Position numbers and translations under genes: made by a program. A stretch of DNA of 64,000 nucleotides, taken from NCBI RefSeq assembly GCF_055900595.2, contig NZ_CM148325.1; one strand, given 5' to 3'. This document shows positions 16,826-50,554 of this stretch, piece by piece. The notes under the pieces were generated by a model. It was not told the DNA's origin. It did not search any database and was given only the letters and a program-made list of their open reading frames with translations. The stretch's first letter is position 1; every line of letters starts with the position of its first letter.

Positions 16826-16852
16826 ATATCGTATTCATCTGGAGCTGATTTA

Positions 16853-16939
16853 ATGACTCACATCGTTCGCTTTATCGGTCTACTACTACTAAACGCATCT
16901 TCTTTGCGCGGTAGACGAGTGAGCGGCATTCAGCATTAA
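16853..16939 (+). CDS. leuL: LeuL, leu operon leader peptide
   Basis: 28-codon [31 protein letters not shown] with four consecutive CTA Leu codons, followed directly by the attenuator hairpin. Confidence 0.93.
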
Positions 16940-16961
16940 GCCAGCACGCAGTCAAACAAAA

Positions 16962-16989
16962 AACCCGCGCCATTGCGCGGGTTTTTTTA
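16962..16989 (+). terminator. leu attenuator (intrinsic terminator)
   Basis: AAAACCCGCGCCATTGCGCGGGTTTTTTT: GC-rich stem plus T-run between leuL and leuA. Confidence 0.92.
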
Positions 16990-21744: not shown

Positions 21745-21973
21745 AAGAAAAAAGCCAGCAGATAATCACTGCTGGCGTGGCGATTAACACCAATACTCAG
21801 TCACACATGATGTCCGCAAATCAGTAGTCAGAATGACTCCCCTCCCACTGCATCAGCTCTTCAAGCATGGTTAATCGTTGTGGGACGCTTAACCAACGCA
21901 ACCAGCACAACGTCGCTGTCGCGGTAAAATAGTGCTGATAAAACTGACGCATGGGGCACCTCCTTGCTTCATC
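21745..21973 (-). ncRNA. sgrS: SgrS small RNA (sugar-phosphate stress)
   Basis: Minus strand reads GATGAAGCAAGGAGGTGCCCCATGCGTCAG... at the 5' end, contains the conserved seed CATGTGTGACTGAGTATTGGTG (plus-strand 21788-21809), and ends in hairpin GCCAGCAG-TGATTATC-TGCTGGC plus U-run. Divergent from sgrR. Confidence 0.88.
21821..21952 (-). CDS. sgrT: SgrT, small protein encoded within SgrS
   Basis: 43-codon ORF MRQFYQHYFTATATLCWLRWLSVPQRLTMLEELMQWEGSHSDY inside the SgrS transcript, with a GGAGG Shine-Dalgarno upstream. Confidence 0.8.
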   Translation of the reverse strand: MRQFYQHYFTATATLCWLRWLSVPQRLTMLEELMQWEGSHSDY

Positions 21974-23724: not shown

Positions 23725-23835
23725 TAACGCCGTTCTCAACGGGGTGCCACGCTGCCGCGTGCGCTGAGAAAATACCCGTCGAACCTGATCCGGATAACGC
23801 CGGCGAAGGGATTTGAGGCTCCTTCTCAAGTCCTT
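23725..23835 (+). ncRNA. TPP (THI-box) riboswitch in the thiBPQ leader
   Basis: Conserved THI-element blocks AACGGGGTGCC ... CTGAGA ... ACCC ... AACCTGATCCGGATAACGCCGGCGAAGGGA directly upstream of thiB. Confidence 0.85.
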
Positions 23836-39494: not shown

Positions 39495-39585
39495 GCGATT
39501 AGGTAGGCCGGATAAGGCGTTCACGCCGCATCCGGCAATTTGTGCCGCCGGATGCGGCGTGAACGCCTTATCCGGCCTACAATTT
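39495..39585. repeat. REP/BIME: inverted pair of REP palindromes
   Basis: GGTAGGCCGGATAAGGCGTTCACGCCGCATCCGGCA ... TGCCGCCGGATGCGGCGTGAACGCCTTATCCGGCCTAC fills the whole gap between the convergent rluA and djlA. Confidence 0.85.
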
Positions 39586-46547: not shown

Positions 46548-47396
46548 ATGGCGACATACCTTATTGGCGACGTTCATGGTTGTTACGATGAACTGATCGC
46601 ATTGCTGCATAAAGTAGAATTTACCCCTGGGAAAGATACCCTCTGGCTGACAGGCGATCTGGTTGCGCGCGGACCGGGTTCGCTGGATGTTCTGCGCTAT
46701 GTGAAATCCTTAGGCGACAGCGTACGTCTGGTGCTGGGCAATCACGATCTGCATCTGCTGGCGGTATTCGCCGGGATCAGCCGCAATAAACCGAAAGATC
46801 GCCTGACACCGCTGCTGGAAGCGCCGGATGCCGACGAGCTGCTTAACTGGCTGCGTCGCCAGCCTTTGCTGCAAATCGACGAAGAGAAAAAGCTGGTAAT
46901 GGCCCACGCAGGGATCACGCCGCAGTGGGATCTGCAGACCGCCAAAGAGTGCGCACGCGATGTAGAAGCGGTGCTGTCGAGTGACTCCTATCCCTTCTTT
47001 CTCGACGCTATGTACGGCGATATGCCAAATAACTGGTCACCGGAATTGCGGGGGTTGGGAAGACTGCGTTTTATCACCAACGCCTTTACCCGTATGCGTT
47101 TTTGCTTCCCGAACGGTCAACTGGATATGTACAGCAAAGAATCGCCGGAAGAAGCCCCTGCCCCACTGAAACCGTGGTTTGCGATTCCTGGCCCTGTCGC
47201 TGAAGAGTACAGCATCGCCTTTGGTCACTGGGCATCGCTGGAGGGCAAAGGTACGCCGGAAGGTATTTACGCGCTGGATACTGGCTGCTGTTGGGGCGGG
47301 ACATTAACCTGCCTGCGCTGGGAAGATAAACAGTATTTTGTCCAGCCGTCGAACCGGCATAAGGATTTGGGTGAGGGAGAGGCGGTCGCGTCTTAA
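46548..47396 (+). CDS. apaH: ApaH, diadenosine tetraphosphatase (symmetrical)
   Basis: 282 aa [46 protein letters not shown]... (metallophosphatase motifs), ending ...[10 protein letters not shown]. Stop overlaps the ccdB stop on the opposite strand. Confidence 0.95.
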
Positions 47397-47707
47397 ATCC
47401 CGTCGAGCATAAAATCTAATGCTCCTTTAATCAAAGTTCGGTGCGCGCTGGCATCGCAAAATTTCGTTCCCAGCGTGTTAACTGGAACAGTTGCAGTCTC
47501 ATGCGTCATGAGCACATATTCTTTGCCGTCTACCAGTAAAAGGATTGGGTTAAGCCGTTCTGGTGGGCGAATATGGCTAAATCGTTCAATAGGTGTTAAT
47601 GGATTAACGATACGGCGATTAATCTCACCAATAATGTCGCTGGTAACATCGATAACAAAGGGCAACGCGGCGTTCCTGCCGCGACTGCGGTATACCGTAA
47701 ATTGCAT
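47393..47707 (-). CDS. ccdB: CcdB-family toxin (gyrase poison), chromosomal homologue
   Basis: 104 aa [44 protein letters not shown]...ATVPVNTLG...DFMLDGI. Shares the MQF-VY N-terminus, FVDV-SDII block, VPV and terminal GI with F-plasmid CcdB as I recall it. Sits 2 nt downstream of a CcdA-like ORF in antitoxin-toxin order. Confidence 0.85.
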
Positions 47708-47709
47708 CG

Positions 47710-47943
47710 CTAGAAGTTCCGGTACTCATCAGAGAAACATCCGGTTTCATCAGCCAATTGATTTAACGCAGCGATAGCTTCTGCATTCTCTTCACGCCAA
47801 CGTGTTGCTGCATGTTTTTTAAGTTCAGCATTGAGCGCAACCGTAAGGGTGGCGCTCATATTTAAGCCTGCATCACGAGCGCGATTGACTAACTCACGGT
47901 CGACGGTGACGGTCACACTTTGTGTGGTACGTTTTGCAGTCAT
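47710..47943 (-). CDS. ccdA: CcdA-family antitoxin, chromosomal homologue
   Basis: 77 aa ORF MTAKRTTQSVTVTVDRELVNRARDAGLNMSATL...RWREENAEAIAALNQLADETGCFSDEYRNF. Resembles F-plasmid CcdA (TVTVD N-terminal ribbon region; RW-EN ... F-DE-R-F C-terminus). Good Shine-Dalgarno (CAGGAGCACGATATCATG). Confidence 0.85.
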   Translation of the reverse strand: MTAKRTTQSVTVTVDRELVNRARDAGLNMSATLTVALNAELKKHAATRWREENAEAIAALNQLADETGCFSDEYRNF

Positions 47944-48028
47944 GATATCGTGCTCCTGTACAATTTATACGTCTTGTATACACGGATATCTGCACGTATC
48001 AGTGATGCCGGAATTCTGATATACAAAC
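47944..48028 (-). promoter_or_regulatory. Putative ccdAB promoter/operator
   Basis: The 85-bp folA-ccdA spacer contains clustered GTATAC-like elements (TGTACA, TTATACG, TGTATACA, CGTATCA, GATATACA), resembling the short palindromic operator repeats of plasmid ccd operons. Confidence 0.5.

Positions 48029-50554
<2,526 letters not shown>

Follow-up and report, generated by a model that had tools for sequence, protein, structure and literature searches.

The model protein of the CcdB family is the toxin of the F plasmid (PDB 3VUB, 1X75), a plasmid-borne CcdB on which, in contrast to the chromosomal copies, purifying selection is reported to act. In the published complexes of this protein, GyrA Arg462 is sandwiched by Trp99 of both CcdB subunits, and the toxicity of F CcdB requires its last three residues. 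Deep mutational scanning has placed W99, G100, and I101 in the active-site class, and substitution of Trp99 is reported to result in a complete loss of toxicity. The Salmonella virulence plasmid pSLT encodes a natural CcdB that lacks Trp99; this protein is of the F type (83% identical to F CcdB) and is inactive by one base (W99R), while the reverse change, R99W, restores toxicity.

For the chromosomal CcdB of Vibrio fischeri, structures (PDB 3JSC and 2KMT) and complexes with GyrA14 (4ELY and 4ELZ) are available (De Jonge et al. 2010, 2012), and gyrase poisoning through Arg462 of the GyrA dimer is known for this toxin as well as for F CcdB. As relayed by the papers that cite De Jonge et al. (2012), CcdB homologues do not share a conserved Trp99, the V. 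fischeri toxin has Thr103 at the Trp99 site, and GyrA Arg462 makes two hydrogen bonds to V. fischeri CcdB Asp99. In Escherichia coli O157:H7, the ccd system has been described in the spacer between folA and apaH, where it was termed a genomic islet by itself. Regarding the interplay of chromosomal and plasmid systems, passages of two reviews (PMC3460896 and PMC7354431) state that the CcdA of F, or of the F-related pO157, neutralizes the chromosomal toxin and not the reverse, whereas a passage of another review (PMC10886550) describes the opposite direction, with chromosomal CcdA protecting against F CcdB. Van Melderen's group has further published that chromosomal ccd systems are degenerating, with the chromosomal toxins evolving neutrally and the plasmid toxins under purifying selection.

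The locus considered here, in a stretch of 64,000 nucleotides of DNA (the window), is the known chromosomal ccdAB islet of E. coli (ccdO157), inserted between apaH and folA. It is the chromosomal ccdO157 system that was described in 2007 by Wilbaux et al. and in 2009 by Mine et al. Its features are as follows.

47375..48010, no strand assigned: ccd islet, approximate extent (comparison with K-12)
47393..47707, minus strand: ccdB, the ccdO157-type chromosomal CcdB toxin (open reading frame, Pfam PF01845, and 94-96% identity to E. coli CcdBs at the same locus)
47402..47404, minus strand: codon GAC of Asp102, aligned with F CcdB Trp99 and V. fischeri CcdB Thr103 (alignment)
47414..47416, minus strand: codon GAT of Asp98, equivalent to V. 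fischeri CcdB Asp99 and F CcdB Asn95 (alignment)
47603..47605, minus strand: codon AAT of Asn35, a candidate destabilizing substitution (other E. coli alleles have ATT for Ile; allele comparison)
47710..47943, minus strand: ccdA antitoxin gene (Pfam PF07362)
47944..48010, minus strand: presumed ccdAB promoter/operator region (sequence features)

The ccdB reading frame is intact, with 104 codons and a stop codon, and encodes a protein that starts with MQFTVY, ends with DFMLDGI, and matches the Pfam CcdB profile over its entire length (positions 1-101 of 101), with a score of 103.6 bits (E=7.3e-30; curated cut-off, 28.6 bits). The 77-codon ccdA is also intact (E=1.2e-26 against PF07362), and its product is 30% identical to F-plasmid CcdA. 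It directly precedes ccdB on the same strand, and only 2 nt separate the ccdA stop codon from the ccdB ATG, so that translational coupling of the two genes is likely. In the RefSeq annotation, the two genes are given as CcdB family protein and CcdA family antitoxin. On one side of ccdAB lies apaH (46548..47396, plus strand), and on the other lie folA and kefC (both on the minus strand), which is the same layout as in the annotated O157:H7 genome. The agreement with ccdO157 of E. coli O157:H7 extends to the insertion site in the folA-apaH spacer, the gene order, the protein lengths (77 residues for CcdA and 104 for CcdB), and the DNA sequence (98% identity). The O157:H7 CcdB is 94% identical to that of the window and has the same DFMLDGI tail, differing at six residues (G10S, L15F, E28V, N35I, H45R, and T78A, from the window to O157:H7), while the two CcdA proteins differ at one residue (N76S).

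The mechanically called folA frame spans 48029-48643 and holds 204 codons from an upstream in-frame ATG, while the RefSeq folA has the usual 159 codons (480 nt), and the extension is an artefact of open reading frame calling. The long antisense frame at 47475..47777 on the plus strand (100 aa) was rejected as a shadow of ccdB without independent support.

Upstream of ccdA, a Shine-Dalgarno sequence (AGGAG) lies 8 nt before the ATG, and a perfect GTATAC palindrome (47976-47981) lies 33 nt before the gene start. The hexamer occurs three times in the whole window, and two of the copies are in the ccd locus, the second one at 47690-47695 within ccdB codons 5 and 6. In the ccd operator of the F plasmid, GTATAC palindromes are known to form the core of the sites that CcdA binds; by analogy, the copy upstream of ccdA may be a candidate CcdA operator site, although the resemblance is suggestive only. 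A promoter scan of the locus found no consensus sigma-70 promoter upstream of ccdA, and the segment 47944..48010 is presumed to act as the promoter/operator region of ccdAB. The same scan, which also covered terminators, found none in the ccd locus. Elsewhere in the window, Rfam matches comprised expected E. coli elements, i.e., the Leu leader (16839-16988), SgrS (21747-21973), and the TPP riboswitch (23730-23829), together with a match to naRNA4 (nucleoid associated, REP derived) at 39506-39577, which scored equally on both strands and is situated in the spacer between rluA-like and djlA-like open reading frames.

The distribution of the islet was described with an 801-nt query across the locus. 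The full apaH-ccdB-ccdA-folA arrangement was detected in 2,021 of the 5,426 complete E. coli genomes, while the remaining genomes, including K-12, matched the query at the flanks only. Over these 801 nt, the window is 100% identical to strain Z0117EC0005 and 98.0% identical to O157:H7 strains, and the identical CcdB protein was found on 433 contigs of a public collection. The K-12 apaH-folA spacer measures 77 bp and contains a REP-like palindrome, compared with about 630 bp in the window. Moreover, the islet has rewritten the last codons of apaH, with ApaH ending in GEGEAVAS in the window and in GEAAAS in K-12, a gain of two residues. At the apaH end of the islet (47375-47396), apaH and ccdB converge and share 4 nt, a TTAA that carries both stop codons, so that a terminator would not fit between the two genes. 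With respect to O157:H7, synonymous divergence was several-fold lower in the islet (4 changes in 549 nt) than in apaH (17 in 849 nt) and folA (17 in 480 nt), which may indicate that the spread or recombination of the ccd islet is younger than the divergence of its flanks.

The C-terminal tail of the window CcdB differs from that of F CcdB at the residue that sandwiches Arg462. In a phmmer search against PDB chains, the window protein and F-plasmid CcdB (1vub/3vub/1x75; E=3.7e-9; 34% identity) aligned from one end to the other, and the last ~40 columns of the alignment, including the C-terminal helix, were free of gaps. Against the F CcdB tail, AINLMFWGI, this pairing sets Asp102 opposite Trp99, Gly103 opposite Gly100, and Ile104 opposite Ile101. 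The two proteins share the Pfam family, the fold, the C-terminal Gly-Ile, and an N-terminal MQF..Y followed by an SD motif, and they are distinguished by Asn95 and Trp99 in F CcdB versus Asp98 and Asp102 in the window. The AlphaFold model of the window CcdB (pLDDT, 91.6) is a predicted small beta-barrel of the CcdB/MazF type with a long C-terminal helix (residues 87-102); in a Foldseek search with this model, the top 16 matches were all CcdB structures (TM scores of 0.79 to 0.92), followed by MazF. Considering that the predicted model superposes on CcdB crystal structures (TM scores of 0.81 to 0.92), the placement of Asp102 does not depend on the sequence alignment alone. An earlier sequence-only reading of this DNA had recognized a CcdB homologue with Asp in place of Trp99 and with Gly and Ile retained, had given the F CcdB tail as NLMFWGI, and had considered Trp99-Gly100-Ile101 to be critical in F CcdB. 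The Pfam match, the predicted fold, and the CcdA partner bear out the homologue; the gap-free alignment is unambiguous and confirms the Asp, a residue identity in which chance plays no part; the tail as given agrees with the PDB sequence; and the published work on F CcdB supports the importance of the three residues. The structure-guided comparison that it had proposed likewise places Asp102 opposite Trp99 in the superposition. What had escaped that reading was the identity of the locus as the ccdO157 islet.

In view of pSLT, Asp102 could be regarded as a loss-of-function substitution like W99R, with the chromosomal protein reduced to a nontoxic co-repressor or a remnant. This interpretation draws on the abolition of F-type toxicity by W99R and its recovery by R99W, on the complete toxicity loss reported for Trp99 substitutions, and on the active-site assignment of W99 in the mutational scan. 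The pSLT case, however, lies inside the F subfamily, in a protein 83% identical to F CcdB with an Asn95 background and a single-base change. Among E. coli and Escherichia fergusonii, 26 full-length (104-aa) alleles were inspected, the O157:H7 protein included, and every one of them has Asp102 and ends in D-G-I. These alleles were taken from the public protein collection and include the two most abundant ones (at least 1,000 contigs each) and one from E. fergusonii; conservation was judged on the 26 proteins, considering that the identity bands of a 76-nt megablast search also reflect synonymous change and variation in the apaH tail. In addition, the Asp102 codon (GAC) differs from the Trp codon (TGG) at all three bases.

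The family columns point in the same direction. The window protein was searched exhaustively against 1.84 billion representatives (of clusters at 50% identity), and the 135 near-full-length sequences among the best 150 representatives were aligned. In the column of F CcdB Trp99, the most frequent residues in these 135 nearest representatives were Thr (50), Gln (28), Ser (15), Asp (13), Leu (7), His (5), and Asn (4), and none of the 135 had Trp. The column of window Asp98, which corresponds to F Asn95, had Asp in 129 of 135, and that of Gly103 had Gly in 130 of 135. Conversely, in the 120 clusters closest to F CcdB, position 99 was occupied by Trp in 70 and by Arg in 36, position 95 was occupied by Asn in 88 and by Ser in 16, and Asp was absent from position 95 in all 120. 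On these sequences, the same patch appears to have two non-overlapping solutions, one with Asn/Ser together with Trp/Arg and the other with Asp together with Thr/Gln/Ser/Asp, bearing in mind that the two samples are neighborhoods of two query proteins rather than the whole family, and that intermediate combinations could exist elsewhere.

Asp102 is thus the normal lineage state of chromosomal-type CcdB and not an inactivating substitution, given that it is fixed in the 26 alleles, that its codon is three bases away from Trp, and that Trp is absent from the 135 nearest representatives. Unlike pSLT CcdB, the branch to which the window protein belongs seems never to have had the Trp. The reading of Asp102 as a pSLT-like inactivating substitution was rejected on the branch without Trp, the three-base codon gap, and the V. 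fischeri toxin, which has Thr in this place and for which gyrase binding is reported and complexes have been solved; we consider it most improbable. The O157:H7-type protein reportedly was toxic upon induction in a gyrA+ strain and not in a gyrA R462C strain, as Wilbaux et al. are said to have found in 2007. Passages of the reviews treat the O157:H7 protein, which has the same Asp, as a toxin that needs neutralization by CcdA. On the other side, one review (PMC10886550) describes the O157 toxin as "somewhat attenuated", which is in favor of a loss of function and which would also be compatible with weaker binding to gyrase in this lineage. Nothing ties that attenuation, or the decay described across the species, to residue 102.

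The relatives that the window protein resembles most are chromosomal. Among solved proteins, V. fischeri CcdB was the best match in both sequence (59 bits by phmmer, versus 40 bits for F CcdB) and structure (Foldseek matches to the GyrA14 complexes 4ELZ and 4ELY, with TM scores of 0.88 to 0.92). Its tail, AAIDFLITGI, shares with the window the pattern D-F-[LM]-x-x-G-I and the lack of Trp at the F Trp99 position. The two proteins are about 35% identical and differ in loop lengths around residues 10-15 and 43-50, and the V. fischeri toxin has Thr at the Trp position where the window has Asp, which gives the latter two acidic residues (Asp98 and Asp102) on one face of the helix. The window CcdB carries the signature of the chromosomal branch, i.e., a tail of the form D-[FLM]-[LM]-x-[TQSD]-G-[IFVY], with Asp98 and a nonaromatic residue at the Trp99 position, while the signature of the F-plasmid type (Trp99 with Asn/Ser95 and the tail N-L-M-F-W-G-I) was absent from it. 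Consequently, the window CcdB is assigned to the chromosomal, V. fischeri-like branch and not to the F-plasmid branch. Neither the ccdO157 system nor the absence of a conserved Trp99 from chromosomal CcdBs is new, as both have been published before.

We consider it very probable that the locus encodes a chromosomal ccdO157 toxin of the V. fischeri-like branch, in which Asp102 is normal and the same gyrase site is bound in the alternative manner already published. By analogy with its homologues, the window CcdB dimer would bind the opened GyrA dimer at the site that F CcdB uses, wedging into it and trapping cleaved DNA as presumed for the family. Asp98, as the equivalent of V. fischeri Asp99, would hold GyrA Arg462, a contact transferred from a homologue only about 35% identical, and Asp102, located one turn further along on the same helix face (i, i+4), where F CcdB has its Arg462-touching residue, may provide Arg462 with another acidic contact. 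Asp at this second acidic position was found in about 10% of the chromosomal-type CcdB clusters. As in other members of the family, the 77-residue CcdA, with a ribbon-helix-helix domain and a C-terminal CcdB-binding tail, would neutralize CcdB, and the CcdA-CcdB complex would repress the operon. The sequence-only reading had offered two explanations for the Asp, namely, attenuated toxicity and a different contact geometry with GyrA. The former, as an effect of the Asp, is not supported, considering that Asp102 occurs in every allele inspected, that three bases separate GAC from TGG, and that the nearest subfamily lacks Trp; the latter gains support from Asp98 and its homology to V. fischeri Asp99, and such a geometry had already been published for chromosomal CcdBs.

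It has been suggested in a preprint that topoisomerase IV is an additional target, based on associations of chromosomal ccdAB with non-QRDR mutations in both gyrase and this enzyme, and inhibition of topoisomerase IV has been reported for peptides derived from CcdB (PMC10886550). On this reading, Asp102 could retarget or broaden the toxin, e.g., toward topoisomerase IV (ParC) or toward a different conformation of gyrase, with a target spectrum unlike that of F CcdB. The associations, however, are purely correlative and confounded by phylogeny according to the preprint's own authors, nothing connects them to residue 102, and the closest homologue with solved complexes is seen at the same site of GyrA14. 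We regard retargeting through Asp102 as very unlikely, and the binding of the same gyrase site by a chromosomal-type toxin remains the preferred explanation.

If the toxicity of the window allele is reduced at all, the more plausible cause would be sought not at residue 102 but at residue 35. Asn35 (AAT, 47603-47605) replaces the Ile (ATT) of the other full-length E. coli alleles and recurs only in two minor derivatives; an exact match to the 91 nt around this codon was found in only 9 of 1,814 carrier genomes. In the 135 family representatives, the corresponding column contained Ile (57), Val (54), Ala (20), Leu (3), and Tyr (1), and Asn in none of them. The residue is located in the central strand (31-39) of the predicted model and is equivalent to I34 of F CcdB, for which a side-chain accessibility of 0% has been published and for which the I34E and I34R mutants are aggregation prone. 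Asn at a buried and always hydrophobic core position, from which it is absent across the family column, makes Ile35Asn a candidate for attenuation, and a measurable decrease in stability or toxicity is a tangible possibility, if not quite the expected outcome.

The toxin gene also shows other signs of decay. In a preprint, ccdB was truncated in 19 of 52 carrier sequence types. In our comparison, ccdB was frameshifted in strains IHE3034 and Z0117EC0051 and stopped at codon 95 in TUM1857, by which the whole gyrase-binding tail is removed, while ccdA was intact and identical to that of O157:H7 in all three strains. Between the window and O157:H7, nonsynonymous and synonymous changes numbered 6 and 2 in ccdB, 1 and 2 in ccdA, 1 and 17 in apaH, and 1 and 17 in folA. 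Such a nonsynonymous excess agrees with the published picture of decay and suggests relaxed constraint on ccdB.

These observations raise the prospect that the window allele has decayed and is nontoxic or weakly toxic through Ile35Asn rather than Asp102, with a functional ccdA that perhaps serves as an anti-addiction or regulatory module. The rarity of Asn35, which is confined to this allele lineage and missing from the family column, the burial of F I34 and the behavior of its charged mutants, and the excess of amino acid changes in ccdB over ccdA and the flanks, in line with the documented decay of toxins whose antitoxin is kept, all speak for this possibility. Asn, however, is milder than Glu or Arg, and published data show that F CcdB tolerated 37-79% of I34 substitutions, depending on the expression level, and that CcdA from the operon can chaperone destabilized CcdB mutants. 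Moreover, the ccdB frame is uninterrupted and the allele occurs widely, on 433 contigs, so that it is not obviously a dead gene. On balance, we regard this decay as a serious possibility that falls somewhat short of being probable. It is compatible with the assignment to the chromosomal branch and does not exclude it.

Asp98 and Asp102 might form a two-point salt-bridge clamp on Arg462, which could confer binding energetics or a target range (gyrase versus topoisomerase IV) distinct from those of both F CcdB and V. fischeri CcdB. In a linked scenario, the rare Asn35 allele might be a toxin that is naturally destabilized and either dependent on CcdA as a chaperone or temperature sensitive, partway through the decay of the system; both scenarios are speculative, and we consider them unlikely.

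For the locus itself, the finding matters little beyond correct annotation. Ile35Asn and the 6:2 ratio of nonsynonymous to synonymous changes in ccdB are a further small addition to the published evidence that the chromosomal toxin decays and the antitoxin is kept. The clean split between the two branches in the samples neatly illustrates epistasis where two proteins meet. For the family, the locus calls for caution, as Trp99, although essential in the model protein F CcdB, is not required family-wide; since the chromosomal branch would bind through a conserved Asp, the logic of a "missing catalytic residue" taken from one model protein would misjudge these toxins and wrongly call chromosomal CcdBs dead.
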